Translations under genes and position numbers: made by a program
Shown: positions 974 through 38,204 of the stretch, piece after piece
Layout of the letters: each line of letters begins with the position of its first letter
Numbering within the stretch: the first letter of the stretch is position 1
Sequence record: SRR31156797_2069
DNA length: 53,708 nt
Reading direction: 5' to 3' (one strand)
The notes under the pieces: generated by a model
What the model saw: only the letters and a program-made list of their open reading frames with translations
Databases searched by the model: none
What the model was told of the DNA's origin: nothing

Positions 974-1169
974 TATTCTCAAGAAAAGCGAAATTTGGTT
1001 TTGCAATTTAACTGATATGTAAATTAAAAATTCTGATTAGTCTGATTTGTAATTATATGCTCATTTGGCAAAATGATAACCTTAGTTTAAGATTGTTTTT
1101 GGTGGGTTTTAGGAAATGAAGCTTGAACCAATTGGATGTTGGGCTTGTTACTTATCAAATTTTAAAACC

Positions 1170-10456: not shown

Positions 10457-10597
10457 ACCGGATATTCCTGTATTAGTCCTGGTTATTTAACGCTGCTTAT
10501 GATCTCAGAATAGGACGTTAAAGGTAAGGAAAAGTTACAGTCAGGTTCAGGAAGATTAACAATCCACCGCACAACAATTGCAAAAAATGGATTATAT

Positions 10598-10629
10598 AAA
10601 AAAAGCCCCGACATTTTGCCGGGGCTTTT
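10598..10629 (-). terminator. Intrinsic terminator of the C25 peptidase gene
   Basis: Minus strand GCCCCGGC-AAAAT-GTCGGGGC followed by T7. Confidence 0.8.
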
Positions 10630-10651
10630 CAATATTCTGAAAGAAAACTGC

Positions 10652-13600
10652 TTATTTAATCACAATCTTCTTAATGATTACTTCTTCGTTGGTTTTTAAT
10701 CTCAGGTAATAAATACCACTGGCATAATCACCAATTTCGATTTGCTGGCTCGTAAAGCCGTTCAGATTTCCAATTTCCTTGCGGTAAACTTCACTGCCCT
10801 GGTAATTGAGCAATCTGTATTCAACAGTTTCTGAAACACCTGAAAGATTTACGTTCAGTACTGTGGAAGCAGGATTTGGGAATACAGAAAGTGTGAGTTC
10901 ATCACCGTAATCTAAAATTCCTGTACAAGGATCAAACATAATTGTGATTTCATCTTCAGCCTCACAATCGTTGCTGTTGGTCACCATAACTGTATAGGTA
11001 ATCTCACCTGCGCCAACACCTGTTGAATCCACTTCGATTGTAGGTGTGGTATATCCACCCGGAGTCCAGAGGTAGCTGGTGGCATCCGGGCATGTAGCGT
11101 CGAGGGTTACGGTATGGTTTATACAAATGGTCATGTCTTCACCAAGATCAGGTTCCGGTGCATCCATAACTTCAAGTGTATAGGTGTCAGTCATAACGGT
11201 TTCACCATCATCCACGGTTAGTGTGTAGGTTGTTGTAACGTCAGGTGTGGCGATCGGATTCATGACGTTAGGATCGCTGAGCGTTTCGGCTGGTGTCCAC
11301 TCACAGTCATAGTTTCCGGTACCGCCTGATACGGTTGCTATCAACATCGCCGACCCACCTTCACACATTTGTTCAGGTTCTGAAGTGATAGTACAGCTGA
11401 GTTCTCCGAGGGCTTCAAATGATGCAGCCCAGCCCATTTTTGTGACTGACCCGTCAGATTCGAAATGGAAAGTAAGTGCACCGGTTTCGTGGGTTGATGT
11501 GATTGTTCCCGGGCCCGAAGTGCCGTTAAAGGGGCTTCCTGATACCTGAGGTGCATTTACATCGGGGCCATCATAAACATACAGGTAATCATAATTTGAT
11601 TCAGTTTCGTATGCCTGGAATTCGAATTGCATGAGCTGGCCGGGTACAGGTGATTCAAATGTCATCACTATATCCTCGTCATTGCTGTATTCACCGTCAG
11701 CTCCACCAGTATCGTAAAACATACCGTTTGCAGCTGTAACCGTGCCGTCTGACATCAGGTATTCCGGGCCACCTGTTGTGAACGACCACACCGGGCAGTC
11801 CTCAGCCTGTCCGTTGGCGTTAATAGGTGTAACGCTCCAGTAGTATGTGGTATTTGGCATCAGTTCGGGCTGGTATTGAGAAACAGCAACAGTTTCAACA
11901 AATGGTGGATCTTCAGTTACACCAAAATAAACATCAAACTCAACGGCATCAAATGATGACCAATTCAACATTGATGTAATGCCAACATTCTCAGCGCCGT
12001 CAGCAGGTTCGGGATCTGAAGCACATTCAGGTGTACCTGAAATGTCGTAACAACCGATCTCAGCTTCCCAACCGGTTTTGGTAACAGAACCGTCCGAAGT
12101 AAAATGGAAGGTAAGTGCTCCATCAGCGTTAAGTGCAATAATGGTTTCGGGTGCATTGTCACCACTAAACGGGCTGCCTTCAACTTCCGGGGCTGATGTG
12201 TTTGGTCCATTATGAACATATAGGTAATCGTAATTATTTTCAACTTCAAAGGCAGTGAATTCGGCTATGATCATTGCGTCAGGAGTGGCCGGATAAAAAG
12301 TCAAAGTTAAATCTTCATCATCGCCATATTCACCTGATGGGCCGCCTGAATCATAGAAATATCCCACACAAGTCGTTATTTCATCATTGGTCATGTTGAA
12401 TTCAGGAATCAGGCCAATTACAACCTGCAGTGTTTGTTCAGCGGTATATAAACCTTCGGGTCCGCCGGCAGCTTCAAGATCAACATCAACCGGATATCCG
12501 ATTGGTGATGAAGCATCTGCAGTAGCACCGATGGCGATCTGCTCTGTTTCTCCGGCAGCAATCGCAGCAACGTTTACAGTCGCTGAATTGATGGTGAGTA
12601 ATGGATCATTTGATTCAATAGCAATTTCGATATCAGAAATATCGCTGGCTCCTGTGTTAAATATATTCAGCATAATATTTCCGGTTTCACCCGGATCTAG
12701 GATGCCGTCACCATTGCCTGATTGCGTATCGTCGATCATAAATTCATCGGCAATTTCGATTACCGGTGCCTGAACGGTGATGAAAAGGTTGGAAGTCCAG
12801 GTATCGCTGCCATCAGTAATTTCAAGTACAAACTGCGCTTTATGCTGGTCAGGAACGAAATCGTCAATTTCAAAAGTATAGGCATCATCAACGGTAGCCA
12901 TTTCACCATTAACGATCGGGCCAAATGTTTGTGAAGCTCCTGAAGTGAGGGTAACATAATCGTCCATGCCGGTAACAGTTGCAGTTACGTTGGCTGATGG
13001 ATCAGCACCTACATTTTCAAGGGTTACATTCAGGCTGATGGTCTCGCTATAGTCGGCCATACCATTGTTATTTCCTGATGCATCGTTTATTGTAAAACTT
13101 TCCAAAACAACATACGGGCCTTCGAGTGCGGCTGCTGGAACCTGCACCATGTAAGGAATGCGCTGTGGCTTGGTAACCACGATGTCAACCTGTCCCGAAG
13201 AAAGTATCGGATCCAGTGACACTTCTACCACACCACTTTCATCTACCAAAGCGGAACCATGCAGTACACCATCTTTGGAGATACCAACGTATGATCCTTC
13301 TTCGGCTGTTACTTCATAATAATCCAGTCCGATAGGCATGATGGCCATGTGTGACACTTCATTTTCCTCACCTTCCGTAAAATATGGTACAAGCGACGGA
13401 TCACCAAGTACGTTATAAGCCTGCCAGTAATAGGTTGGGTTGGAGTGCTGCGGATATCCCTGGATCTCAACTTCAGTAACGGCTAGGTTTCCAACAAATA
13501 CGGTAGCACCCGTGGTTACATAATTACTCACAAACGGCGCATCATACACGCCCCAGGAAGATTCCTCGTAAGTTGGAACATAACCATTGTTATTTCCCTG

Positions 13601-15214
13601 GATGGGGAATGCACCCACTGCCCAGTAGAAATCTTCAAACCAATAACTGCTTGGTGATGAACCAATATACGCCACAGAACCTTTGTTTACGCCACGTTGC
13701 CAGGTTTCGCCAATACATTCGTCATAACCAAAGTCGGCGGCAAGGCAGCAGTTTCCAATCGCGATCGGGTACTGTCCATTATTCTCAAAATTTTCAACAT
13801 CACTTTGTGAAAGGTTGGGATCACCCCAGGACGTCTGACTACAGTGTGCGGTATAGTTGATCATGCTCACTGCGATTCTCTCCGGATCGTAACATCCACC
13901 ATAGGAGCTCAGGTAAGCGTTTACATTTACAAAGTCATATGATGCATTGAAATAATTTTCGGTACCATAAAGTACGGTAGGCTGGCCAACAGCAGGATTC
14001 CACGAACCATCAGCGCCGGCGATCAGCGTTACATCGTTAAGGTAAGACGGATCGGAAAATTCGTATTTTTCATAATACATGGTTTTGGCGATCTGTGTGT
14101 TTAGTTCGCCGGATGTGGTTGCTGAAAAACGTCCGTAGTACATTTCAGGGAAATAATCCCCGTCAACGCTGCCATAATACAGATCGGTCATCTTACCCGA
14201 TGATGAGCCCATCTCGGCAGGGATCTGAGGAGTGTCGCCTACAAAAAGGATAAAACTTGGGGCCGGATCGTTTGGCGTGCCCTGGTTGTACTGATCGTGT
14301 ACATAAGATTGTATCTGGCTGTATGACGACCCGATTTCATCGGTGAAGGCCAAAACAACTTCGAAACCTTTCATGGTTTTCCATTCGATGAATGGCACCA
14401 GATCGTCCTCAAACATGCGGTCGGCAACGATCAGGTATTTCACCGGATACGTTGTGAGGTCTGGGTGATCAGGATATCCGCCGCCCATGCGGTTTGTAAT
14501 GCTGTTGCGGATAACCTCAAAGTAAGGTGAATAAGTTGATGATTTGATGTATTTTGTCAGTTCAACATCAGCATCGTTGAATTTTACTTCAACCTCAATG
14601 TCGTTGTAAACCCTGATGACCCCTTTTACCGGGTTATAGTTAACCGGGGCAACAGTTACACGTGCAAAGCGGTACCCACGCATCACGCCAAGGACCTCAA
14701 CCTTTGCCAATTCAGGTTCAATAAACCGGTTGGTGGAATAAACCTTATCATCCAGTTCAAAAGTTACATCGTCGGCGTTCTGATCTTTACGAATAGATGG
14801 CTGAGAAGGCATGATCATTTGGTTGATGCCATAATCAGACAATGCATATTCTGTTACCGTGTAGTTTTTTACTTCAACGGATACTTCAGCGCCAAAAGGA
14901 ATTTCGATGAGTTTTTTGGCTGCCGGAAGTTTTGGTGTACCCAGTTTTCCGATGAAGAAAGTTCCGGGGATTCCAATTTCATTAAATGTGCCTTTTTTGG
15001 TTTCAACAGAAAAAGTGTTGATTCCGCTAAAGGTAAAGTTGAGATTCAACTGATAGGTGTTGTCTTCAGCGATCTGAACTTCTGTTGCTGTTTTTCCAAG
15101 GTCGATGGCATAGTCCTGTGCCATACCCTGGTTTGAAATGAGTGCCGTGAGCATGAGGAGAGCTGCAATTAGCAGGCCTTTGCCGTTAAGCATTCTGAAA
15201 GTAGATTTTTTCAT
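10652..15214 (-). CDS. C25 cysteine peptidase (Lys-gingipain-like) with propeptide, two CUB-like domains and T9SS CTD
   Basis: Propeptide GTPKLP...LIEIP; YFPEMYYGRFSA; catalytic NYTAH and IGNCCL; VLGDPS; two FYDSGG/FYDTGG...YDYLYV...FTSDGS CUB-like repeats; CTD VFPNPA...KKIVIK. Confidence 0.92.
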   Translation of the reverse strand: MKKSTFRMLNGKGLLIAALLMLTALISNQGMAQDYAIDLGKTATEVQIAEDNTYQLNLNFTFSGINTFSVETKKGTFNEIGIPGTFFIGKLGTPKLPAAKKLIEIPFGAEVSVEVKNYTVTEYALSDYGINQMIMPSQPSIRKDQNADDVTFELDDKVYSTNRFIEPELAKVEVLGVMRGYRFARVTVAPVNYNPVKGVIRVYNDIEVEVKFNDADVELTKYIKSSTYSPYFEVIRNSITNRMGGGYPDHPDLTTYPVKYLIVADRMFEDDLVPFIEWKTMKGFEVVLAFTDEIGSSYSQIQSYVHDQYNQGTPNDPAPSFILFVGDTPQIPAEMGSSSGKMTDLYYGSVDGDYFPEMYYGRFSATTSGELNTQIAKTMYYEKYEFSDPSYLNDVTLIAGADGSWNPAVGQPTVLYGTENYFNASYDFVNVNAYLSSYGGCYDPERIAVSMINYTAHCSQTSWGDPNLSQSDVENFENNGQYPIAIGNCCLAADFGYDECIGETWQRGVNKGSVAYIGSSPSSYWFEDFYWAVGAFPIQGNNNGYVPTYEESSWGVYDAPFVSNYVTTGATVFVGNLAVTEVEIQGYPQHSNPTYYWQAYNVLGDPSLVPYFTEGEENEVSHMAIMPIGLDYYEVTAEEGSYVGISKDGVLHGSALVDESGVVEVSLDPILSSGQVDIVVTKPQRIPYMVQVPAAALEGPYVVLESFTINDASGNNNGMADYSETISLNVTLENVGADPSANVTATVTGMDDYVTLTSGASQTFGPIVNGEMATVDDAYTFEIDDFVPDQHKAQFVLEITDGSDTWTSNLFITVQAPVIEIADEFMIDDTQSGNGDGILDPGETGNIMLNIFNTGASDISDIEIAIESNDPLLTINSATVNVAAIAAGETEQIAIGATADASSPIGYPVDVDLEAAGGPEGLYTAEQTLQVVIGLIPEFNMTNDEITTCVGYFYDSGGPSGEYGDDEDLTLTFYPATPDAMIIAEFTAFEVENNYDYLYVHNGPNTSAPEVEGSPFSGDNAPETIIALNADGALTFHFTSDGSVTKTGWEAEIGCYDISGTPECASDPEPADGAENVGITSMLNWSSFDAVEFDVYFGVTEDPPFVETVAVSQYQPELMPNTTYYWSVTPINANGQAEDCPVWSFTTGGPEYLMSDGTVTAANGMFYDTGGADGEYSNDEDIVMTFESPVPGQLMQFEFQAYETESNYDYLYVYDGPDVNAPQVSGSPFNGTSGPGTITSTHETGALTFHFESDGSVTKMGWAASFEALGELSCTITSEPEQMCEGGSAMLIATVSGGTGNYDCEWTPAETLSDPNVMNPIATPDVTTTYTLTVDDGETVMTDTYTLEVMDAPEPDLGEDMTICINHTVTLDATCPDATSYLWTPGGYTTPTIEVDSTGVGAGEITYTVMVTNSNDCEAEDEITIMFDPCTGILDYGDELTLSVFPNPASTVLNVNLSGVSETVEYRLLNYQGSEVYRKEIGNLNGFTSQQIEIGDYASGIYYLRLKTNEEVIIKKIVIK

Positions 15215-16022: not shown

Positions 16023-19000
16023 TTATTTAATGAATACTTTTTCTGAAGCCATACCCTCACCGGTACTTACCTTCACCACGTACCAGCCTGTTTTCAGGTT
16101 GGGGTTGATCCGGGTGAGTCCGGCCATCACAACCTGCTGGCCATAAAACAGCTGCCCTGTAACATTGTAAAGCTCTACATCTGCGTCTCTTGCAACATCA
16201 CTGCTCAGATAGAGGCTGTTGTTGTGGGTGTAGATGTTGAGGCCCTGGATGGTGGTTTCGTAGATGGCTGTTCCTGCTTCGGCGTGTAGTTTGAAGCGGA
16301 ATGGATCATCGTCCGGAGTAGCCGTAAAAGCGTAGGTTTTACCATCAGATAACACTGCAAATTCATTCAGTTTGGTATCTTCAATGGTCAGTTTTGAAAT
16401 GCCAAAGTTCGTTTCGAAATTCCCGATCGAAAATGATATTTCCCTTTCTTCCTGTACAGTAAAGCGGATTGGAATGATTGAATTTTCATCTTTTGAATTG
16501 AATACGTATTTTGAAACCCAAATGTCATCTTTGGTAATGGCACAGAAATACGGAATGCTGGTGACCGGATAAAAATACCTGGCGTCATATTCCCATTCAT
16601 AATTCTGGGAGGCGTTTTCGTTGGCCTGCAGTAAAATCTGAACCTGTTTTTCGTTGTCGAATCCGGCAAGCAATTTCACAAACCCACTATACTCACCTGA
16701 TTTTTTTGTTGATCCGTGTGTTTGGTCAGCAGTTTCGAATGTTAGCGATGCTGATCCATTCTCAGCATATACGAATACACCCTGGCCAACTTCGAGTTCA
16801 GTTCCCAGATCCTGCCATTCTCCTGTTGTGGGGCTGAGTACTTTTGGTGAACTTACATTCGATTTGGTAACATCTGCCCAGGTAACTTTTGAACAGTAAG
16901 GATTACCTGAAAGGTTCCATGCTGTATTTGAATTGGAAACAATAGGTGAAACTGAAGTTTTATTGAGGTCTGTTCCGGCAAAAGTCTTGGTTCCTGCATT
17001 GTTTGGATGATAAGCTACAAGGTAACCGGTATCTGCTTCAAACTGATCGAAAATGCCAGGCTGGTTGCTGTTGTCATAATAATTAAGCCAGTAATTCGTG
17101 TTTTGGTCATACACATAAAAATCATCTTCGTTTTCTACAGGTTCAAAATCAGAGACGGCAATATCCATTTCTGAAACCGGGGCAGAAATGGCATACCAAC
17201 CATCATCATTTCCGGTATATCCTGTGAATGATTTCTCAACATAAGCAGTACCATTAATGGTCAGGTTTTCCTGGCCGACCAGGGTGACGCCTTCCTTAAG
17301 CACAATGTCTTCGATTGTGGTAGGTGCAGATAGGGTAGGATAGGTTGACAATCCTGATGGGATAAAAACACTAATTCCATTTCCAGGCAGGCCATTATCC
17401 CAGTTTCCTTCAGTATCCCAAGCATTACTTTTTGCAGCACTTCCGTTCCATGCTGTAACAGGATGCATACCGGGGGTCATTCTTAGGGCATCACAGGACG
17501 TAATAATGTTCCATTCTGAAGCGGTCCATGTAGCATTTGGCGACGTAATGGTGTTTTTCCTAACTGCCTTTGAGTTTTCATATTCCCATGGCTCCCCGGT
17601 TCCATCTACACCAACCTCACCATAAATGTCGACAACATTTGAACCATCAAAAAGCTCATATACATCATCACCATTACCTGATATGAATCCACTGTAAATT
17701 TCAGCAGTAAATCCATAAGTTGCATCAAATGTTGTGTTGTAGGCAACTGTTAATGTATTACCAGCATCAATGGTACCGGACAAATCCACGTCAGAGCTTG
17801 ATGTACTGCCGTTCGCATACCTTCGGATCTGCCATCCTGTTATGTCAATGGCGCTCTCAGATGAATTATACAATTCAACATATTTGGCATCAGCTTCATC
17901 AGCTGGGTCTGTTACTTCTGAAATGATCAGCAATGATCCTGAGTATGCATTTGTTGTAGCGGTAGCCTGTTCAACGGTTTCGTCTGTTTTATAATTTACA
18001 GCACCCCCAGTTCCATTATAAGGGAAAATTTTAAAGTAGTAAGTTGTGGAAGCCGATAAACCGGTGAACTGGAAAGTTCCAGCTCCGGAATTGACATTTT
18101 GAACAAGAGTTCCGTTGGATTCTGGAGTTCCGTCAACCGGGTCGTTTATTGCTGCATAGCTAACATCGCTGCCTTTTATCAGATAACTGTCGGCATCAGA
18201 GTCTGTCCATGAAACTGTGATTTCGCTATCGGAGTTGGCCACTGCTAAAAAGCCGGAAGGATGGTTGCTAGGTTCATCAGAAATAACGATATAGCTTTGT
18301 TCATCAGATGTCGCTTCACCTGAATCATTGTCAAGGGCATATATTTCATAATAAACTGTGGTGCCTCCGGCCTGCGCAGGAATATCAGAATCAGTAACGT
18401 AAGTATCTCCAGAGGATACAGACATATTTATGGTATTTCCAAGGCTGCCGGATGCAGTGCCCCAATGCAACTCAACGCCAGCTACTGTGCCATCTGAATC
18501 TGTTACATCTGCGGTTACAGAGACTGTGGTTGATGAGGTAATTCCTGTGGCAGGGGTTTGGATGATGTTTGAAATGGAAGGTGGGGTATTACCACCACCA
18601 GAATAACCAGTCCAGGTTACATTATCGATTGAAACCTGCCCACCAACAGAGGTATTCTGTTGAAATTTTATTACAAAAACTCCAGAAACATTTACTGAAA
18701 TATTACCAGAATTTTTCGTTATACCCTCCTCTCCGCTCGATGTTACAGTTCCAAAGACCTGGTCATTTACTAAAACATCAAGATTTACATTTGTTGAGAA
18801 TGCCTGCTTGTAATCAAAACTAATTGTTCCGATACCATCTGATATTGTTCCTGAATATACATTTGCTGTTGAATTGTTTCTTAGGCATGGTGTTTCATCT
18901 GTAATTGTCTGGTCACCTCTACAGTCAGTATAGGTCCATGTTGAACCGTCCTGTCCAATAAACGTTCCACTAGCATAACTACTTCCTGTTTCAGGAAAAT

Positions 19001-19853
19001 TGGCAAAATCTTCCGTAACAGAACCATCCGTAACTTCGCCATCACAAGTCACCGTTTCATCAGTGGCACCAGTTGAAGAACAGGTAATATCTTCACCATT
19101 GTAGGTTCCTGTGGATAATCCGGCCTTGAGTCGAACATAAATTGTTGTTGAGGCAACCGAACCACCAGTTTGGGTTAGGGTAATCGGACTGGTGTATCCG
19201 CTTCCTGAAGTTTCTGAAATTTCATAATTGGTGGGTGCTGTCAATGAAATGTCAGCAGTAAGGTTTGTACCCTCGACCGTAAAAGTTAGTTCATCTGAAG
19301 GGCCATTATCAAGTACATAAGTAAAGCCTGTTAGTGATGATGGGTCAACCGATATTGTTGGGGTGGAGCCTCCAGAATAAGCAGTCCATTGCAAATCATC
19401 TATTGCTATCCTATCACCATTTCCCGGAGTTTCAATTACAACCACAATATCCCCTGAAATATCAATATTCAAAATAGAGTTTGTTTGTTCAGTATCTGAA
19501 TAAGGAATTGTTCCAACGGTTGAGCTGTTAACTTTGATTGTTAGGTTTCCTGACCCTCCACTAAAAACTCTTTGCGTTGTAACTGTCAATGAACCAATTC
19601 CCCCCAATACAGAGGGAGAGGTCAAATCTCCATTTCTAATACAAATTGCTTTTCCATTTATCGTTTGATCCGTTCTTGCGTCAGTTGCTGACCAAGTGCC
19701 ACCATCATCACCTGTCCAGGTTTCTGTTTGATAACCTCCATATGGGCCGAGATTGCTAAACGATTCGTCTATTGGGCTTGATTGCCCCCAAACATGCCCC
19801 CCAAAAAAGAGTAAAACTGTAAAAAGTGTAATGAGTCGTAAAGAGTGTTTCAT
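16023..19853 (-). CDS. Large T9SS-secreted multidomain protein (two repeated beta-sandwiches, Ig-like, FN3-like and lamin-tail domains)
   Basis: Signal peptide (VWG|Q); repeats ending IDDLQWTAYSGG and IDNVTWTGYSGG; TTYYFKIF FN3-like module; lamin-tail IISEV...KYVELYN...NGDD; WNLSGNPY; CTD ...GWYVVKV...EKVFIK. Confidence 0.88.
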   Translation of the reverse strand: MKHSLRLITLFTVLLFFGGHVWGQSSPIDESFSNLGPYGGYQTETWTGDDGGTWSATDARTDQTINGKAICIRNGDLTSPSVLGGIGSLTVTTQRVFSGGSGNLTIKVNSSTVGTIPYSDTEQTNSILNIDISGDIVVVIETPGNGDRIAIDDLQWTAYSGGSTPTISVDPSSLTGFTYVLDNGPSDELTFTVEGTNLTADISLTAPTNYEISETSGSGYTSPITLTQTGGSVASTTIYVRLKAGLSTGTYNGEDITCSSTGATDETVTCDGEVTDGSVTEDFANFPETGSSYASGTFIGQDGSTWTYTDCRGDQTITDETPCLRNNSTANVYSGTISDGIGTISFDYKQAFSTNVNLDVLVNDQVFGTVTSSGEEGITKNSGNISVNVSGVFVIKFQQNTSVGGQVSIDNVTWTGYSGGGNTPPSISNIIQTPATGITSSTTVSVTADVTDSDGTVAGVELHWGTASGSLGNTINMSVSSGDTYVTDSDIPAQAGGTTVYYEIYALDNDSGEATSDEQSYIVISDEPSNHPSGFLAVANSDSEITVSWTDSDADSYLIKGSDVSYAAINDPVDGTPESNGTLVQNVNSGAGTFQFTGLSASTTYYFKIFPYNGTGGAVNYKTDETVEQATATTNAYSGSLLIISEVTDPADEADAKYVELYNSSESAIDITGWQIRRYANGSTSSSDVDLSGTIDAGNTLTVAYNTTFDATYGFTAEIYSGFISGNGDDVYELFDGSNVVDIYGEVGVDGTGEPWEYENSKAVRKNTITSPNATWTASEWNIITSCDALRMTPGMHPVTAWNGSAAKSNAWDTEGNWDNGLPGNGISVFIPSGLSTYPTLSAPTTIEDIVLKEGVTLVGQENLTINGTAYVEKSFTGYTGNDDGWYAISAPVSEMDIAVSDFEPVENEDDFYVYDQNTNYWLNYYDNSNQPGIFDQFEADTGYLVAYHPNNAGTKTFAGTDLNKTSVSPIVSNSNTAWNLSGNPYCSKVTWADVTKSNVSSPKVLSPTTGEWQDLGTELEVGQGVFVYAENGSASLTFETADQTHGSTKKSGEYSGFVKLLAGFDNEKQVQILLQANENASQNYEWEYDARYFYPVTSIPYFCAITKDDIWVSKYVFNSKDENSIIPIRFTVQEEREISFSIGNFETNFGISKLTIEDTKLNEFAVLSDGKTYAFTATPDDDPFRFKLHAEAGTAIYETTIQGLNIYTHNNSLYLSSDVARDADVELYNVTGQLFYGQQVVMAGLTRINPNLKTGWYVVKVSTGEGMASEKVFIK

Positions 19854-20094: not shown

Positions 20095-21240
20095 TCACTT
20101 CGCCTCCAAACTCACCTGCATCACCCCACCATCGGTTTTGTAGTCAATTTCGCTGCCGCTTCCCGTGTATCCGAAAATTTTAAAATAATATGTCGTGTTG
20201 GGCGTAAGCCCTCCAAAAATGCATGTTTCAACACCGTAAGCAATATTCCGGTTGGAGAAATTATCGCTTACGGCGGTGCCATCAACCGGGGTGGTTATGC
20301 TGTTAAAGCCCACATCACTCATACGTACCAGGTAACCATCGGGTAGGGTTGTGCCGGTGGCATCGGTCCAATTAAGCGTGATGGTATGTGCTGAGAAATC
20401 TGTTGCGTGGTTACCGGGTTCAGGTGCTAAAATTGAACCTACACCCCAGATATCATACACATATTCCGGATGGTCGATAAATGGGTTGCGGTTGCCCTGA
20501 ATGGCATACACGGCATCGTTCCGCTCGGTTTCCTTTTCGGAGACGGGATCATCCACATGCCACTGTCCCAGCATGTCAAGGAACCAATTTTCAAAAACCG
20601 GATAATCCGTGCCATCCAGCACTGCATCTCCATAAGTATTGTTGTTTTCCCAGCCACTTATCACATCTTCATAGCGGGTAGCCATATAAAAATAGGTGCG
20701 TGCAAAATCGCCTTTGTATTCGTCGATGGGTTCAAACACGGTCCCGCTGTAACCACTCACACTGCAAGGCCCCAGTTTGCTGCCATTGCCTGTGGTTTGG
20801 GTGGGGGAGGACGTTTCGCCAAAAGTATAGCTGCCCCTGATGTTGTTCACCTTGCCATCTGTAGGGTAGATCTGGAACAGGTCGGAATACATGGGGGAGG
20901 CATCATTGAACCAGCTTGACGGGAAGGAGTGTTCGCGGTTGTAGCAGTCACATTCCAATGAATAGGTTCCACACTGGTCATTGCCGAAAGCAAATGTGCA
21001 GTTTGAGTACATATCCCAAACTTCTCCCTGGGCATTGTCATCGGTAGTTTGAAATGCCGTCCACAGGTAATCATAGGATTTTACGGTATGATCGTCAATG
21101 ATGTTGTGAAGTGCTGTTTTGAGTGATTCGCCGGAGAGTCCGTTGGCGTCGTCGTAATAGCCTGCCGGCTGGGCCTCAGATAAATAATGCCCTAATATCA
21201 AAGTGATAAAGAGAAAAACTCTTTGGGAAATGAAGCGCAT
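20095..21240 (-). CDS. Endonuclease I family nuclease with C-terminal FN3-like module
   Basis: Signal peptide (SEA|QPAGYY); YNREHSFP, KGDFARTYFYMATRY, DPVSEKETERN, QGNRNPFIDHPE; TAGATTTG -7 box at 21263-21270. Confidence 0.92.
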   Translation of the reverse strand: MRFISQRVFLFITLILGHYLSEAQPAGYYDDANGLSGESLKTALHNIIDDHTVKSYDYLWTAFQTTDDNAQGEVWDMYSNCTFAFGNDQCGTYSLECDCYNREHSFPSSWFNDASPMYSDLFQIYPTDGKVNNIRGSYTFGETSSPTQTTGNGSKLGPCSVSGYSGTVFEPIDEYKGDFARTYFYMATRYEDVISGWENNNTYGDAVLDGTDYPVFENWFLDMLGQWHVDDPVSEKETERNDAVYAIQGNRNPFIDHPEYVYDIWGVGSILAPEPGNHATDFSAHTITLNWTDATGTTLPDGYLVRMSDVGFNSITTPVDGTAVSDNFSNRNIAYGVETCIFGGLTPNTTYYFKIFGYTGSGSEIDYKTDGGVMQVSLEAK

Positions 21241-21375
21241 GTACTCTTATTTTGCTGGAGCGCAAATCTATTAAAAATGGTATGAATTTGAAAGTCCGGA
21301 TATTAAGATTTTGTTAACTACATCAAATGAAAATTTCACCATTTACAGAGTATCCTGAAATTCAATGCGATGACA

Positions 21376-22476
21376 TTACTGAGCTTCGAGGCTTATCTGC
21401 ATTACGCCGCCTTCTGTTTTGTAATCAATGGCTGAGCCTGCTCCTGAATATCCAAAAATTTTGAAATAATACGTCGTTCCGGGAATCAGATTACCAAAAA
21501 CGCACTGCTCCAAACCGTAGCTTACATTTTTGTTGTTCCAATCATTATCAACAGGTGTACCATCAACAGGAGACTGGATTGATTCGAATCCGATATCACT
21601 CATCCGTAATAGGTATGCCGCTGGTACAACATCTCCGGTAGCATCAGTCCATTGAAGGGTAATGGTATTTGCCGAAAAATCGCTGGCATGATTGCCGGGT
21701 TCCGGACCAATCTCATCGCTCCAAATGCTCACAGCAAATTCAGGATGGTCGATGAAAGGATTTCGGTTGGATTGATAATTATTGTAAATTAGGTTATTAC
21801 GCACAATTTCAGCATCATCAACGGGGTCGTCTTCATGCCACTCAAGCAGGGTTGAAAGGATGCCCAACTCACCGTAGCCATTGCTGGATGATTCCGTGAT
21901 GTAATCTGCAACCTCCAGGTCCGGTTCACCGGCTTCATCACCTTCCCACCTGATGCACATGTAGAATACCGCACGGGCCACATCTCCTTTAACGGCGTCG
22001 CGCACCTGCCATGAATCCGAGTCGCTGTAGCAGCCGGAAGCTTCATCGTGAGGCGTTCCGCCATCGTCAAAATCTTTGTTGCCGCGGCTGGTATTGATGC
22101 TTACGTCGCATGGGCGTAAGGCATGCAGGTCAGTTCCGGGTCCCATGCTTGTGCCAAAATCTCCGTGTGATTGCGGCCAGAGGTGTTCGCGGTTCCAACC
22201 ATCACTACCTGTGTCGAAATCGGTTTTGAGGATCGATACCCCTTTATAAATGAGTTTGATGTAATCACTATCATCAGGATCTTCGTCCAGAATCTGCAGA
22301 AAAATTTTTGCATCATCATAACTTATTTCAGTGTGATCATCAATAATGTTGTGAAGCGTATTTTTTAAAGCTGTTCCGGTTAGCCCATCAGTTCCATCGT
22401 AGTATCCGGCAGGAATTTGCGCAGACACACTCCACCAAAGTACGCCAAGCGCAATGAGTAAAAAAGTCTTTTGCAT
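21376..22476 (-). CDS. Endonuclease I family nuclease (Bsn-like) with C-terminal FN3-like module
   Basis: ATG 22476, signal peptide (VSA|QIPAGYY); WNREHLWPQSHG, TDLHALRP, KGDVARAVFYM, QSNRNPFIDHPE. Confidence 0.92.
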   Translation of the reverse strand: MQKTFLLIALGVLWWSVSAQIPAGYYDGTDGLTGTALKNTLHNIIDDHTEISYDDAKIFLQILDEDPDDSDYIKLIYKGVSILKTDFDTGSDGWNREHLWPQSHGDFGTSMGPGTDLHALRPCDVSINTSRGNKDFDDGGTPHDEASGCYSDSDSWQVRDAVKGDVARAVFYMCIRWEGDEAGEPDLEVADYITESSSNGYGELGILSTLLEWHEDDPVDDAEIVRNNLIYNNYQSNRNPFIDHPEFAVSIWSDEIGPEPGNHASDFSANTITLQWTDATGDVVPAAYLLRMSDIGFESIQSPVDGTPVDNDWNNKNVSYGLEQCVFGNLIPGTTYYFKIFGYSGAGSAIDYKTEGGVMQISLEAQ

Positions 22477-22665
22477 GTAGGTTTTGTCCCTTGTTAGAAT
22501 TATCCGCGGTAAAAGTAGCATTGTTCAGGATACGAAAGGGGTAGGCTGGTATGAAGTATGAATTGGAATGGAGTTGAGGGGTTGATTTATAATGAACTAC
22601 ATTGATGAATTTATTGATTTTTTTATGGCAGGTATTTATGATTGGCATATTAATCCATGGGAATC

Positions 22666-25236: not shown

Positions 25237-25364
25237 AGTTGCAGGTTCAAAATTTTTCCAAAATTAGAATTATTATCAATGCAGAATATGACCTATGCCT
25301 GTTTTGGTTCCCTTATATCATCGCAGAATTTGTAAATTTGATACCTCAAAAAATCGCACAAAAA

Positions 25365-27275
25365 ATGAAGAATCTCTACACTGTTCTGGCGCTGATTACA
25401 ATATTCATTACCCTCGCTGCAATCGCATTTAGCCAGGGCCGGCAAAACCGCCACAGACACCGGCATCATGCCGCATTACGGGCGACGGAGGGCGGCACCC
25501 TTCCCACCGGTTTCAACGATCTTTTTGCCGGATCGGGCGAATGTTTGATGTGTCACAACGAACAGGTAAACCAGCAGGGAGAATCTGTGAGCATCATCGC
25601 CGACTGGCGCTCTTCCATGATGGCCAACGCTGCCAAAGACCCGTTCTGGCAGGCCAAGGTCAGCCACGAGGGACTGGTGAATCCGGCACACAAAGAAGTG
25701 CTGGAGGATGTGTGTACCCGATGTCACGCCCCGACCGGACACCACAATGCCCATCATAACGGGCAGGCGCTTTATTCGGTGGATGAAATGCGCGAAGACC
25801 CGCTGGCACTGGACGGCGTTCAATGTAGCGTTTGCCACCAGGTAACGGTAGAATCGCTGGGTAGTTTTTCAGGGCAGGTGGAGATCGGGACCGACAAAAG
25901 GATATGGGGGCCTTACGAAGCTCCGTTTACCAATCCCATGATTTTTAATACCGGATACACCCCCGAACACGGCCCACACATAAGGGATGCAAGGCTTTGT
26001 GGTTCATGCCACACCCTCATCACCAACACGGTCGACCTGAACGGCGTTCCCACCGGGGGCGAATTTGTGGAACAGTCCATTTACCAGGAGTGGCGCAATT
26101 CGGAGCATGCTGTTGCCGGTCAGGTTTGCCAGGATTGCCATGTTCCCCGCATCAACGATGAGGTGGTGATCAGCGCCATGCCGCCGTGGCTCGACCCCAG
26201 GTCGCCTTTTGGCCTGCACCACATGGCCGGGGCAAATGTTTTTATGAGCCGCCTGCTCAGGGATTTTGGAGGTCAGATTGGCGTTACAGCTACCGAAGCA
26301 CAGTTAGACTCCACCATCGACAGGTCCACGCGCATGCTGCAACAACAAACCCTCGATATCACCCTTACCGAAGAAGGCCGGAGCACGGATACGCTCTTTG
26401 TTTCGATGCTGTTGCAAAACAAGGCCGGGCACAAGTTCCCCTCAGGATACCCGGCGCGGCGGGCATTTATCGAGTTGATTGCCATTGGCGAACCCGGCGA
26501 CACCCTCCTCCATACCGGGAAAACGGATGCCGATTACAACCTGATGGCTGAAAATGAAGACTATGAAAACCATTACACCATGATCAACCAGGATGAGCAG
26601 GTGCAGATTTATGAAATGGTGATGGGCAACGTGGAAGGCAACGTAACCACTGTGCTGGAAAGGGCCGCCATTCATTTAAAAGACAACCGGATACCACCAG
26701 AAGGGTTTACGACATCGCATGGAAGCTACGACACTACGCAGATTGTAGGCAACGCCTTTGCTGATGCCAACTTCAACAAAGAAAACGGCACGGAAGGATC
26801 GGGTTCCGATCGGATATTTTTCCACATTCCCACGGATGGCTTTGAAGCGGAAATCCATATCACCGCAAAAGTGTATTACCAGTCGGTGAACGATAAATGG
26901 CTGGAACACATGTTCAGCTACAGCTCCGATCAGATTGACGCTTTTAAATCGTTTTATGATAATGCCGACAAAACCCCGGTGCTGGTGGGCGCCACTGATC
27001 TGACCAGCCTTTCGGTGAACCTGGATGAGTTGAATACAGACAGAATGGTGGTGTTCCCGAATCCTGCTGGCGAAAAGGTGTACATTCATTTTAGTACTGG
27101 TGGAATCAAACAAATCTCCGTGTTCACCCCTGACGGCAAGCTGCTGGAACAACACAAGGTGGAAGCGGGCCGCGAAAGCATACAGCTCAACACCTCCGGC
27201 TGGCAGGGCATCCTCTTCCTGAAAACCGAATTTGCCGACAATACCGCCACGGTTACCAAACTGTTGGTGCATTGA
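25365..27275 (+). CDS. Pentaheme c-type cytochrome with T9SS C-terminal sorting domain
   Basis: ATG 25365 after a TAAATTTG box (25333-25340); Sec signal; CLMCH, CTRCH, CSVCH, CGSCH, CQDCH; GHKFPSG; CTD VVFPNPA...DGKLL...TKLLVH. Confidence 0.88.
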   Translation: MKNLYTVLALITIFITLAAIAFSQGRQNRHRHRHHAALRATEGGTLPTGFNDLFAGSGECLMCHNEQVNQQGESVSIIADWRSSMMANAAKDPFWQAKVSHEGLVNPAHKEVLEDVCTRCHAPTGHHNAHHNGQALYSVDEMREDPLALDGVQCSVCHQVTVESLGSFSGQVEIGTDKRIWGPYEAPFTNPMIFNTGYTPEHGPHIRDARLCGSCHTLITNTVDLNGVPTGGEFVEQSIYQEWRNSEHAVAGQVCQDCHVPRINDEVVISAMPPWLDPRSPFGLHHMAGANVFMSRLLRDFGGQIGVTATEAQLDSTIDRSTRMLQQQTLDITLTEEGRSTDTLFVSMLLQNKAGHKFPSGYPARRAFIELIAIGEPGDTLLHTGKTDADYNLMAENEDYENHYTMINQDEQVQIYEMVMGNVEGNVTTVLERAAIHLKDNRIPPEGFTTSHGSYDTTQIVGNAFADANFNKENGTEGSGSDRIFFHIPTDGFEAEIHITAKVYYQSVNDKWLEHMFSYSSDQIDAFKSFYDNADKTPVLVGATDLTSLSVNLDELNTDRMVVFPNPAGEKVYIHFSTGGIKQISVFTPDGKLLEQHKVEAGRESIQLNTSGWQGILFLKTEFADNTATVTKLLVH

Positions 27276-27650: not shown

Positions 27651-27881
27651 ATGAAAACAGTGTCTTTAAAAATAGACGATTCGATTTTCGGCGAGACTGA
27701 AAAAATACTTGCTCGGATTAAGAAACCACGGAATCGGTATATAAACGAAGCGATTGAGTTTTATAATAAAGTTCAACGCAAACAGATTCTTGAGAAAAAG
27801 CTTAAAAAGGAATCTGGATTAGTTAAAGCGGATTCAATGTCTGTACTAAAAGATTTCGAGGAGATTGATTATGCCGATTAA
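27651..27881 (+). CDS. Antitoxin, ribbon-helix-helix-like
   Basis: MKTVSLKID...RNRYINEAI RHH pattern; overlaps the toxin gene; TACTTTTG box at 27623-27630 flanked by ATACTAAAA direct repeats. Confidence 0.75.
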   Translation: MKTVSLKIDDSIFGETEKILARIKKPRNRYINEAIEFYNKVQRKQILEKKLKKESGLVKADSMSVLKDFEEIDYAD

Positions 27882-28218
27882 GCAATTTGAAATTTGGATT
27901 GCGGATTTAAATCCACAGATTGGAGCCGAACCAGGAAAAAACAGACCTGTTTTAGCGATACAAACAAATCTGCTCAACAAAATTCCTCACCCTTCAACTA
28001 TTGTTTGTCCAATTACAACGAACGTAAAAAAGGATTCTGAGATATTAAGGGTACATCTTAAAAAAGGAACAGCTAAATTGCATCAAGCCTGTGATATAAT
28101 GATTGACCAAATTCGTGCGATTGATAATAAACGGTTGACAAAAAAACTGGGGGTTTTACCTGATGAACAAATTGATTTGGTGAAAGAAAATATTCAGATA
28201 GTACTAGACCTTGAATAA
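27871..28218 (+). CDS. Type II toxin, PemK/MazF family endoribonuclease
   Basis: EIWIADLNP..GAEPGKNRPVL, TIVCPITT, DQIRAIDNKRL. Confidence 0.92.
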   Translation: MPIKQFEIWIADLNPQIGAEPGKNRPVLAIQTNLLNKIPHPSTIVCPITTNVKKDSEILRVHLKKGTAKLHQACDIMIDQIRAIDNKRLTKKLGVLPDEQIDLVKENIQIVLDLE

Positions 28219-35741: not shown

Positions 35742-36209
35742 ATGAAAATCACAGTTGATTCAAACATTGTTTTTAGTGCAATCCTAAATACAAAAAGTAA
35801 CATTGGCCAGTTATTAACTCTTGGATCAAAATATTTTGATTTTTATTCTATCGACTTACTTAAGGAGGAGATATTAAATCACAGGGTCAAAATTCAGCAA
35901 ATTACAGGATTCTCGGCACAAAAATTTGAAGAAGTTTTTGATTTAGTTATTTCAAAAATACGATTTGTCGAAGATGTATTGATTCCTGACAGTTATGTTA
36001 AAAATGCCATGGAACTCACCCATGATATTGATCAGGATGATACACCATTTGTTGCATTAACAAACCATCTGAAGTCAAAACTATGGACCGGTGACAAAGC
36101 ATTGGAAAGTGGATTAAAAAAGAAAGGCTATTCCCGAATAATCACAGCTTCAGAACTGTATGAGATTTATATTAATTTGGAATTAAAAAGGAGAAAGGGA
36201 ATTGAATAA
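35742..36209 (+). CDS. PIN-domain (VapC-like) toxin
   Basis: [29 protein letters not shown] acidic PIN motifs. Confidence 0.9.
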
Positions 36210-36251: not shown

Positions 36252-38117
36252 TCACCCCAGCCCCAGCAAATATGCATGCAAATCCGTATCCGTTTCCAGG
36301 CCCAGCTTTTTGCGGAGGCGGTAGCGGGCTTTTTTGATGCCTTCGGAAGAGATGTTCAGCATGTTGGCGATCTCCTTGGATGAAAGGTTCATCTTGAGCA
36401 GGCACGCCAGCCGGGTTTCGGATTTGGACAGGCCCTCGCTGACATCGGTTAGCTTTTTCATGTAACTTGGATGCACATCACGGAAAGAGCTAATGAAACT
36501 GTCCCACTCCTCCTCGGCGTTGATCTCTTCCTGGATATGCCGCAAAATACTTTTTACTGCCGGGTCATCCAGTACGATTTTCTCTTTGATCTCGGTCTGC
36601 AATCCGGTTAAAAATTCATTCTTCCTGGCAATCTGCAACATCCCCGAGGCGAGCTCTTGCTTTTTCATATCCAGGCCTTTTTCCAGCAATTCCAGCTTAA
36701 GCTCCGATTCCCGTTGCTGTGCCTCGGCGAGCGACTTCTCCTTTTCATAGATCTTCTGTTTGCGACGATTCCGGCTCACCAAAAGCACAATCAGCATTGC
36801 GCCAATTAAAACAATTGTGGAGAGGATTCCAATCAATCGGTTACGTTTCAGCCTGTCGATTTCCGATTCGGACTTTAGCCTGATGAGCTGCTTCTCCTTT
36901 TCAGCCGCCTCAAACCGGTCCGTATAAAACCTGATCTGTTCCTGTTGCCGGATGCTGTTCACACTGTCGCTAAACTGTTGGAATTTCTGGTACCATTCCA
37001 GAGCCGGTTCAAAACGCTCTTTCCAAAAGTAAGTCTGATATAGTGCCTTAGCATAAAAAGCACCCTTACCCCAGTTTTTGTAGGCCAGCGCCAGATCAAA
37101 TGCCTTTTCGATGTAAATCGCCGCCTTATCGTACCGGTCGAGACCACGATAAACTATGCCCATCCAGTACAGGTCGTGGGTAGAGTCGGATTCCAGCTGG
37201 CCAGCCATTTTCAGGTTGGCTTCCGTTTGTTGCATGGCTTTTTCAAATGCACCCATAGTCACCAAAAGCTGGGCCTTATTCCGGCCATTGGTCAACATCC
37301 CGATTTTCGATCCCAGTTGCTGTTGGATTTCAGCCTGTTTATCGAGATACAACAAAGCCGAATCGTATTTCTGTTCACCCTGGTAGGTTGCTGAAATATT
37401 GGTGTACAGGGTAAGGATCAAAGACAGTTTCCCGACAGACTCATAATATTCTACTGCCTGAAGGAAATAACTGCGTGCCTTGCCGTAATCGCCCTTCCCG
37501 AAAAAAATGCCCGCAATGGTATAATCCACCACGGCATTCATCCCCTGATCGTTGAAGCTTACGGCCAATGCCCGGGCACTGTCGGCATGCTGCATGGCCG
37601 CTGCCACATCGTGCCGGGCATCCAGGGAACGGCCTTTCAGGCTATACCAGTTAATCATCTGCGCGGTATCCCTGCCTGCAAAAACAAAAGGCCTCACAGT
37701 GTCCAGTTCACCCATGGCCAGTTCCAGTTTCCTGGTGGCCACATAAATCCGGCTCATCGTCATGCGCACATCGGTTTCAAGCTTTTTAAAACCACCTTCA
37801 ACAGCCAATGTTTTGGCTTTTCGCAAATGATCAAGGGCCTTTACCGGTTCACCCAGCCCAAACCACGCATTCCCCTGTCCGCGCTCAGAAATAATCAGGC
37901 CAGCATTGTAGTTCATTTCTCTTGAAAGCCTCGCTGTTTCTGCATATAGCTCAAGCGATTTTTTGAGATCATTGGTGCTGAAAGTTTCCGCTTCGGTGAT
38001 CTTATTGTTGATGGATATCGTATCGCCGACAGCCAGTGCAGGATGAACCAATAAGGCCATAAGGAATACCAGGATCAGCGAAAAATGATGTTGTAATCTG
38101 TATTTTACAAAGTGCAT
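36252..38117 (-). CDS. Membrane-spanning TPR sensor with C-terminal LuxR-type HTH regulator
   Basis: N-terminal signal/TM, TPR helices, TM (LIGILSTIVLIGAMLIVLLV), coiled coil, LSKSETRLACLLKMNLSSKEIANMLNIS...KARYRLRKKL. Start uncertain (38117 or 38195). Confidence 0.9.
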   Translation of the reverse strand: MHFVKYRLQHHFSLILVFLMALLVHPALAVGDTISINNKITEAETFSTNDLKKSLELYAETARLSREMNYNAGLIISERGQGNAWFGLGEPVKALDHLRKAKTLAVEGGFKKLETDVRMTMSRIYVATRKLELAMGELDTVRPFVFAGRDTAQMINWYSLKGRSLDARHDVAAAMQHADSARALAVSFNDQGMNAVVDYTIAGIFFGKGDYGKARSYFLQAVEYYESVGKLSLILTLYTNISATYQGEQKYDSALLYLDKQAEIQQQLGSKIGMLTNGRNKAQLLVTMGAFEKAMQQTEANLKMAGQLESDSTHDLYWMGIVYRGLDRYDKAAIYIEKAFDLALAYKNWGKGAFYAKALYQTYFWKERFEPALEWYQKFQQFSDSVNSIRQQEQIRFYTDRFEAAEKEKQLIRLKSESEIDRLKRNRLIGILSTIVLIGAMLIVLLVSRNRRKQKIYEKEKSLAEAQQRESELKLELLEKGLDMKKQELASGMLQIARKNEFLTGLQTEIKEKIVLDDPAVKSILRHIQEEINAEEEWDSFISSFRDVHPSYMKKLTDVSEGLSKSETRLACLLKMNLSSKEIANMLNISSEGIKKARYRLRKKLGLETDTDLHAYLLGLG

Positions 38118-38204
38118 ATAAATCAATTTCAAAACAGAAAAAACAGCATCTATCCTGATTAGGTTCATGTGGAGCATGTTTTTACCGATTAACATTCCAT
38201 GGCT

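Follow-up and report, generated by a model that had tools for sequence, protein, structure and literature searches.

A predicted pentaheme cytochrome bearing a type A sorting domain of the type IX secretion system

Can the secretion system of type IX (T9SS), whose cargo described so far consists, to our knowledge, of hydrolases, adhesins and nucleases, carry a heme-loaded cytochrome out of the cell? This question is raised by a gene of sequence record SRR31156797_2069, a stretch of 53,708 nucleotides hereafter called the window. Its product, P0001, joins a Sec signal and five CxxCH heme-binding motifs to a C-terminal domain (CTD) of T9SS type. An earlier note on this DNA had proposed that the organism displays or releases such a cytochrome through T9SS, as a candidate route for extracellular electron transfer (EET). 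The features of the sequence and of its homologs suggest, with a probability of about 0.6, that P0001 is a holo-cytochrome of the pentaheme-cytochrome (PHC) family that would leave the periplasm by T9SS and then serve as a tethered extracellular electron-transfer module. That the protein is located outside the cell can be held with still greater confidence. What is new here is the combination of a PHC cytochrome with a T9SS type A cargo tag, both kinds being known separately.

The gene lies in a single long frame that runs across positions 25365-27275 on the + strand (Table 1). This frame opens at a TTG in position 25239, but translation probably begins with the ATG at 25365, given that P0002, the closest homolog retrieved (82% identity over 100% of the length), starts at the same site. 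The N-terminus of P0001 is hydrophobic (MKNLYTVLALITIFITLAAIAFS, then Q) and has no lipobox cysteine, in agreement with the Sec signal reported by the earlier note. Of 143 homologs with a CTD, 114 have a comparable N-terminus by a crude pattern check. All ten cysteines of P0001 sit in its five CxxCH motifs (beginning at C60, C117, C154, C212 and C255), which had been counted correctly and prove to be invariant in the alignment of homologs. A six-frame scan of the 53.7 kb detected CxxCH in only two open reading frames (ORFs) of at least 60 aa, P0001 and a cytochrome b fusion encoded at 42437-45163. As just one other ORF of this size carries the motif, the cluster of five is not a chance occurrence.

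The assignment of the C-terminus to the type A CTDs agrees with both curated profiles and with the predicted structure. TIGR04183 matches P0001 with 30 bits for a cutoff of 23, i.e., a margin of 7 bits, and PF18962 matches residues 563-635 with 27.8 bits for a gathering score of 27. An AlphaFold2 model was built from an alignment, A1, of 100 of the 269 fetched homologs, chosen by hand because their core is complete and their length falls at ~520-750 aa; it reaches a mean pLDDT of 93.8 and a pTM of 0.86. In this model, residues 559-636 superpose on the CTD of mirolase (Z 10.9, rmsd 1.6 Å, 74 residues) and on the CTDs bound to the translocon (SprA), namely those of NucA (Z 10.3), RemA (Z 10.2) and FspA (Z 9.6), with an rmsd of 1.9 Å. 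PorZ and PorU have CTDs that superpose as well, and the whole set of solved CTDs falls between Z 9.1 and 10.9 with rmsd of 1.6-2.3 Å. The type A CTD of the earlier note is thus confirmed by the HMM check and by superposition on solved domains. Together with the Sec signal peptide, the profile match and the beta-sandwich fold of the CTD give P0001 the sequence and fold features by which T9SS type A cargo is recognised.

This tag is not peculiar to P0001. Among the 70 family members closest to P0001 (P0001-P0070, itself included, of 121 listed), 50 match TIGR04183 at E <= 1e-3. The tails were also classed with an ad hoc HMM derived from 54 CTD-like tails, in those fetched proteins, 260 of 269, in which the core is matched to its end. 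According to this classing, 159 tails are CTD-like, 60 proteins end at most 25 residues past the core, and 41 have another tail (at least 110 aa long in 33, 60-110 aa in 7 and 25-60 aa in 1). A FastTree phylogeny was computed from 239 cores, 30 having been dropped for a core match starting after profile position 25 or ending before position 480. It is midpoint-rooted, and no order of events is claimed from it. P0001 belongs to a clade of 151 members (support 0.99), 128 of which carry a CTD, 19 an alternative tail of ~165 aa and 2 some other tail, the last 2 being tail-less. The presence of the CTD changes 11 times on the tree, versus a mean of 75 and a minimum of 61 in 200 shuffles of the labels; since related sequences share labels, this result says no more than that the trait is inherited stably. 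Within the clade of P0001, retention of the CTD is stable. In the earlier proposal of a T9SS-exported multiheme cytochrome, the part that stands best is the one concerning the protein itself, a Sec-dependent pentaheme polypeptide with a genuine CTD kept in a clade of 151 members; the role in EET is a conjecture and is weighed below.

The alternative tail defines a sub-lineage of proteins of 707-715 aa (P0085, P0019, P0020, P0030, P0064 and others), which is nested among the CTD forms and falls in a 31-member clade with support 0.992. In these proteins, a conserved tail of ~165 residues, ending in ...YWPE...PGKAYLVKM...FP.C. and matching no Pfam or NCBIfam family, replaces the CTD, perhaps as a further domain for sorting or anchoring. 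Outside the clade of P0001, tail-less homologs differ in another way. A crude regular expression finds a lipobox in 25 of 58 of them versus 3 of 143 CTD forms, and this lipobox often precedes a long low-complexity linker rich in Pro, Thr and Ser. Furthermore, a few relatives carry a dockerin (PF00404, 35.5 bits in P0209; 22.8 bits in P0223, just below the cutoff of 22.9). This repeated fusion of the core to anchoring devices argues that, in several phyla, its place of work is the outer membrane or beyond.

The remainder of P0001 corresponds to one known fold. The top PDB match found by Foldseek for the model is 5ZE8, the low-potential pentaheme cytochrome c552 of Thermochromatium tepidum (E 6.3e-17). 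VIA-align superposes the model on 5ZE8 over residues 50-548 of P0001 (Z 26.6, rmsd 2.7 Å, 348 of 385 residues, 22% identity); its next matches all fall on the last 78 residues and are T9SS CTDs. In the same way, the A1 profile retrieves 5ZE8 (E 1e-12) and MccSep (9WT8, E 1.1e-6) among PDB sequences. A search of the PDB with the single sequence of P0001 gave nothing significant (best E 0.22), so that both relatives emerged from the profile only. As judged from the model, residues 50-548 are a single PHC fold, made of a five-heme helical cap set on an Ig-like stem. The earlier note had set apart a heme-free middle region; this notion has to be abandoned because the alignment with 5ZE8 spans residues 50-548, which makes this region the stem of a single fold, one that supplies the invariant H356 and H403. 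P0001 thus displays what characterises the PHC family, i.e., five CxxCH in an N-terminal cap, an Ig-like domain and the fold of 5ZE8. PMC11976967 places c552 (structure 5ZE8, cited there as Chen et al. 2019), ExtKL of Geobacter and GSU2801 in this family and, citing Baquero et al. 2023, mentions a proposed evolutionary link with the archaeal nanowire AvECN.

Beyond the heme motifs, the invariant or near-invariant residues of A1 are W81, D92, P93, G182, E236, Q237, E242, N291, G355, H356, P359, R365, G385, H403, K439, N441, R442, P445, D467 and D482, among which H356, H403, K439, N441, R442, D467 and D482 are the invariants of the stem. Five conserved residues are candidates for the distal coordination of the hemes: M86 (94 of the 100 sequences), M192 (99), H285 (99), H356 (100) and H403 (100). 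It is likely, from this conservation, that they are the distal ligands of the five hemes. M86 aligns with a His of 5ZE8 when the profile is compared with PDB sequences. The pattern suggests that all five hemes are six-coordinate, two of them possibly with His/Met ligation. As there are five conserved candidate ligands for five hemes, no coordination site is obviously open.

Comparison with known systems shows which parts of P0001 have precedents. With c552, it shares the whole fold over residues 50-548, the five CxxCH in the same order and a stem motif H-x-x-P-x-G-x-P-x-R. However, c552, the protein of a purple sulfur gammaproteobacterium, lacks a T9SS CTD, whereas P0001 bears a secretion tag, has a core larger by ~115 residues and carries a Met (M86) in place of a His. 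With MccSep, P0001 shares the five-heme helical cap and the Ig-like stem of the PHC superfamily. NF040886, the MccSep family, matches 67 of the 70 closest members weakly; for P0001, it reaches 32.3 bits, far under the cutoff of 250. In the available text of the report on MccSep (bioRxiv 10.1101/2025.11.18.688581 / PMC13510729), this protein, which is ExtKL (GSU2937-2936) of Geobacter sulfurreducens (NF040886, PDB 9WT8), is described as a periplasmic homotetrameric polysulfide reductase, 97% of its homologs being predicted to be periplasmic. Its active site lies between heme 2, which is His/Cys-ligated through C239, and the Ig-like stem, from which the catalytic selenocysteine U325 reaches in (bioRxiv 10.1101/2025.11.18.688581). 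P0001 has neither of these residues. No cysteine is found outside its CxxCH motifs, and the invariant E236-Q237 stands at or beside the position of C239. The position of U325 holds Y362, and the gene contains no in-frame TGA; in A1, this column is Y in 54 sequences, F in 28, I in 15 and H in 3. Besides lacking the catalytic Cys and Sec, P0001 differs from MccSep by its T9SS tag. On these alignments, P0001 shares the fold of MccSep and not its catalytic apparatus, and it is not a polysulfide reductase of MccSep type.

Like the type A cargo of T9SS (gingipains, mirolase, NucA, RemA), P0001 has a signal peptide and a beta-sandwich CTD of ~78 residues; unlike this known cargo, it is predicted to bear covalently bound redox cofactors. 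Its likeness to MtrC and OmcA of Shewanella lies in the role proposed for it, that of a multiheme protein exposed on the outer side of the outer membrane, and in a weak similarity to PF22113, the MtrC/MtrF pentaheme domain (27.7 bits, below the gathering score of 30); TIGR03507 is not among the NCBIfam matches of P0001. Mtr cytochromes are decaheme lipoproteins that depend on type II secretion and are wired through MtrAB, whereas P0001 has five hemes, the PHC fold and a T9SS route, and no MtrAB was found in three related genomes. Searches of the full-text literature, with subscription journals mostly outside coverage, found nothing linking T9SS to multiheme cytochromes and no description of a T9SS cargo with covalently bound redox cofactors, which agrees with the statement of the earlier note that no characterised example of this route is known. 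The nearest source is PMC11495043, whose accessible text predicts extracellular multi-heme cytochromes in metagenome-assembled genomes (MAGs) of Bacteroidota and suggests EET; there, "type-9 secretion systems" are named once, in passing, and unconnected to the cytochromes.

Taken together, the features of P0001 would fit the following course. The protein would be exported by Sec and probably cut by signal peptidase I after residue 23. Hemes would then be joined covalently to the five CxxCH by a System II maturation of CcsA/CcsBA type, the genes of which are present in relatives. Folding would take place in the periplasm with M86, M192, H285, H356 and H403 as the putative distal ligands. The 78-residue CTD would be recognised by PorV and SprA, and PorU would remove it after translocation, presumably within residues 549-558, as expected from other type A cargo. 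Like such cargo, P0001 could then be attached to anionic lipopolysaccharide (LPS) or released. Outside the cell, its heme chain would most likely exchange electrons with extracellular redox substrates, soluble or solid. An electron-transfer module is ranked first because the five apparently closed hemes, as well as the homologs that are lipoproteins with long linkers, resemble outer-membrane cytochromes. Since no outer-membrane conduit is recognisable, a diffusible reductant or an undescribed conduit must be assumed.

The machinery needed for such a course was sought in three species-representative genomes that bear orthologs with 52-57% identity (G001-G003, reached through loci L001, L002 and L004). 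SprA, PorU and GldM/PorM are each over cutoff in all three. PorV matches in all three and is over cutoff in two, the copy of G002 being split by a stop. The CcsA-type domain PF01578 is present in two of the three; none was found in G001, which is fragmented. The window itself encodes two other cargo proteins with a strong CTD, an S8 subtilase at 1116-3059 (+), with 36.5 bits for PF18962, and a gingipain-like C25 peptidase of 1520 aa at 10652-15214 (-), with a propeptide, CUB domains and a CTD of 43.8 bits. Furthermore, it encodes a 908-aa protein with 11 CxxCH, from which it follows that the organism makes c-type cytochromes. At the locus L001 of a related MAG, a PorV gene (10016-11236, -; PF19572, 232 bits) is located 2.3 kb downstream of the ortholog, which is not the case in the window, L002 or L004.

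Several observations weigh against an exported electron-transfer module. The CTD exceeds the PF18962 threshold by just 0.8 bits, and the T9SS and heme-maturation genes are known here from relatives at 52-57% identity only. Of 301 genomes sampled evenly across the class to which G002 belongs (the tallies include the unpublished G183 and G097), 66 carry a homolog of P0001. PF01578 matches in all 66 carriers versus 289 of the 301 genomes overall, and PorV (E <= 1e-40) in 65 of the 66, the exception being G183, versus 288 of the 301; both being near-universal in the sample, they do not discriminate. No neighbour gene is conserved across the window and the three related loci. MtrB/PioB (PF11854) was found in none of the three related genomes, two of which are fragmented assemblies, and MtrA/DmsE (TIGR03508) gave weak matches there, none over cutoff. 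As no conduit of Mtr type was found in the relatives, the result would be a surface cytochrome with no evident electron supply. The only characterised member of the PHC family, MccSep, is a periplasmic enzyme and not an EET conduit, so far as the available text describes it. Finally, many invariant residues outside the heme motifs are polar (E236, Q237, E242, N291, K357, R365, K439, N441, R442, D467 and D482), so that an enzyme would fit better than a plain electron wire.

This last point leads to the alternative that survives best, although it remains tentative: P0001 could be a stand-alone extracellular or surface redox enzyme, acting on a small substrate at one heme and supplied by diffusible reductants. 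Sulfur, nitrogen or selenium species, or peroxide, are candidate substrates, and neither a partner gene nor a conduit would be needed, which is consistent with a gene that is solitary and lies in variable contexts. MccSep, with its active site at heme 2 and the stem, offers a precedent in the accessible part of its description (bioRxiv 10.1101/2025.11.18.688581). In the family of P0001, no motif outside the hemes is more conserved than the stem loop corresponding to the one that bears Sec in MccSep (GHKFP.G.P.RR); the invariant E236-Q237 pair, at or beside the position of C239, and the many other invariant polar residues point the same way. However, both catalytic residues of MccSep are missing from a protein that has no cysteine beyond its CxxCH, the Sec position is held by Y, F, I or H, the five candidate distal ligands seem to leave no obviously open site, and the sequence names no substrate.

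It is somewhat more doubtful that P0001 is a terminal EET reductase of Fe(III) or Mn(IV) minerals, humics or electrodes, in the role of MtrC and OmcA. The joint presence of a surface-export tag and a multiheme chain, the weak PF22113 match and the lipoprotein homologs of other phyla, whose long linkers recall outer-membrane cytochromes, speak for this role; the Rieske protein and the cytochrome b/11-heme protein of the window could supply periplasmic electrons, and the suggestion of EET by extracellular multi-heme cytochromes of Bacteroidota, made in the available text of PMC11495043, points in the same direction. Against this, the PF22113 match stays under its gathering score of 30, the three related genomes provide no MtrB/PioB and no MtrA/DmsE over cutoff, and no partner gene is conserved between the window and the three loci. 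The cytochrome b/11-heme fusion, found in 1 of the 301 genomes, cannot be a general source of electrons. Moreover, the two probable His/Met hemes suggest higher potentials than those of the Mtr cytochromes, in which all hemes are bis-His.

It is improbable that P0001 stays in the periplasm, like MccSep and c552, with a CTD that is poorly functional or regulatory, or that is needed only for disposal or for packaging into vesicles. The supply of electrons would be no difficulty there, the PF18962 score is marginal, and MccSep and 97% of its homologs are assigned to the periplasm in the part of the report consulted (bioRxiv 10.1101/2025.11.18.688581). However, the CTD is 7 bits above the NCBIfam cutoff and superposes on translocon-bound CTDs at an rmsd of 1.9 Å, a useless tail would hardly be expected to persist in 128 of 151 clade members and to change so seldom on the tree, and homologs in other phyla bear other tethering devices.

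The polymerisation of secreted P0001 into an extracellular cytochrome filament, or nanowire, by analogy with AvECN and with the PHC proposal for cable bacteria, is very improbable: type A T9SS cargo usually consists of single molecules, anchored or released, and no nanowire chain (OmcS, AvECN) is found among the structural matches of P0001, an absence that does not exclude that family, while what speaks for it is the grouping of c552 and ExtKL in the PHC family with the cited AvECN link (Baquero et al. 2023, in the accessible part of PMC11976967) and the homotetrameric state of MccSep (available text of bioRxiv 10.1101/2025.11.18.688581).

P0001 belongs to a large family. A word-indexed search scored 8000 candidates, 2460 of them at E <= 1e-3; the listed homologs are mostly of 620-640 aa with a precomputed PF18962 match, and the named ones come from MAGs of Bacteroidota or Bacteroidales. 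An exhaustive search of 50%-identity representatives returned 3048 clusters at E <= 1e-3; 1717 of them remain at 1e-10 and 597 at 1e-30, with residues ~45-545 of P0001 covered by the matches. In the ESM Atlas, multiheme clusters of 543-669 aa with scores of 0.91-0.92 belong mostly to Acidobacteriota, Planctomycetota and Pseudomonadota. Among the 301 genomes of the class sample, the 66 carriers were counted at E <= 1e-20, and all reach 1e-92 or better; 15 of them give 2-3 matches, the pair of G214 looking like a single gene split in two. A 54%-identity ortholog is also present on L003, a contig of 2697 bases from a MAG titled Sulfurimonas. Given that the family is of Bacteroidota type and the contig short, a binning error seems more likely than a true campylobacterial copy.

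The coordinates of the features of the P0001 gene are collected in Table 1. The RHRHRHH stretch to which the earlier note drew attention is indeed present, but it is not conserved: P0002 has RFRQRYH instead, and distant homologs have unrelated linkers. Upstream of the gene, TAAATTTG could be a -7 promoter element, if the consensus TAnnTTTG that we assume for Bacteroidota applies. A strict search for the -33/-7 pattern had no match at this site, and promoter and terminator scans around the gene revealed nothing distinctive. Among the sequencing runs listed as carrying the gene, one DNA run, which may be the source sample, has it at full length, the others share at most 0.09, and none is an RNA run.

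Table 1. Features of the P0001 gene and of its surroundings, in window coordinates
Feature	Position	Strand	Basis or remark
Whole gene, P0001 (636-aa pentaheme cytochrome with T9SS CTD)	25365..27275	+	stop codon counted
Possible Bacteroidota -7 promoter element, TAAATTTG, 24 nt upstream of the ATG	25333..25340	+	read from the sequence
Sec signal peptide, aa 1-23, MKNLYTVLALITIFITLAAIAFS then QG	25365..25433	+	probable cleavage between AFS and QG, inferred
RHRHRHH, aa 29-35, in the N-terminal linker	25449..25469	+	pLDDT 52-67 for blocks 21-40
Helical heme cap (mainly) of the PHC fold, aa 50-328, holding the five CxxCH	25512..26348	+	AlphaFold model, 5ZE8 alignment
Heme motif 1, CLMCH (C60-H64)	25542..25556	+	invariant in 100/100 aligned sequences
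Heme motif 2, CTRCH (C117-H121), counterpart of the MccSep active-site heme	25713..25727	+	motif scan, alignment
Heme motif 3, CSVCH (C154-H158)	25824..25838	+	motif scan, alignment
Heme motif 4, CGSCH (C212-H216)	25998..26012	+	motif scan, alignment
Heme motif 5, CQDCH (C255-H259)	26127..26141	+	motif scan, alignment
Stem of the PHC fold (Ig-like beta-sandwich), aa 329-548	26349..27008	+	DSSP strands from 330 on; inside the 5ZE8 alignment
Stem motif GHKFPSGYPARR, aa 355-366	26427..26462	+	aligns with MccSep GHSIPDG-U325-P and c552 PHAMPTGAPFR
Flexible linker, aa 549-558, likely PorU cleavage region	27009..27038	+	pLDDT 58 in block 551-560
T9SS type A CTD, aa 559-636 (VFPNPA...KLLVH)	27039..27272	+	PF18962, TIGR04183, structural Z 9.1-10.9

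The surroundings of the gene vary from one locus to another. In the window, it is flanked by a divergent dCMP deaminase gene and by a gene for a MazF/PemK-like toxin, which stands just downstream at 27865-28218 (+). The orthologs are flanked by a helicase gene and an AbiEii-like gene in L001, by fucose-utilisation genes and a gene for a DUF362 protein in L002, and by genes for an SNF2 helicase and a glycoside hydrolase in L004.

Electron supply in the window organism could involve a co-oriented cluster of four genes (42437-48706, -). The products are a Rieske protein of 2Fe-2S type (48230-48706, -), a beta-propeller resembling arylsulfotransferases (46842-48113, -), a membrane protein of 463 aa that has a sulfotransferase-like motif and matches no Pfam family (45306-46697, -) and the 908-aa protein in which cytochrome b is fused to a multiheme part with 11 CxxCH (42437-45163, -). 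The Rieske protein and the fusion could feed periplasmic electrons in this organism. As a general partner of the P0001 family, the fusion was rejected, its homologs being found in 1 of the 301 sampled genomes (G002, 54% identity) versus 66 carriers of the cytochrome. The supply of electrons by P0001 to extracellular lytic polysaccharide monooxygenases (LPMOs) of the AA10 family was also rejected, PF03067 being found in none of the 301 genomes.

Other genes of the window include one with a PIN_2 domain (35742-36209, +) and one for a TPR/LuxR-type regulator (36252-38195), next to which lies a gene whose 624-aa product contains a thiol-activated cytolysin domain (38205-40079, -; PF01289, 111 bits). 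Two tandem paralogs of 381 aa (20095-22521, -) each combine an Endonuclease I and an fn3 domain (PF04231, 282 bits in one and only 116 in the other). A 1276-aa protein with lamin-tail and fn3 domains is encoded at 16023-19853 (-) and has no CTD according to Pfam.

It could be envisaged, though this broader idea is tentative, that T9SS is a general and undescribed route by which Bacteroidota bring folded, heme-loaded multiheme cytochromes of PHC type to the surface for respiratory or catalytic exchange of electrons with extracellular substrates, with an outer-membrane conduit or a shuttle unlike the known porin-cytochrome systems. If the export of P0001 proposed here is true, the T9SS translocon moves redox proteins already loaded with their cofactors, and the CTD could be used as a tool to display multiheme cytochromes on cell surfaces. 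A mechanistic question is then posed, that of the delivery of electrons to a cytochrome of the outer leaflet in bacteria apparently devoid of an Mtr-like conduit. Bacteroidota, abundant as they are in sediments, soils, mats, sludge and bioelectrochemical systems, would also gain an unrecognised extracellular redox chemistry and, because the family is large, the function of P0001 and its relatives bears on the taxa to which the cycling of iron, sulfur and humics is attributed.

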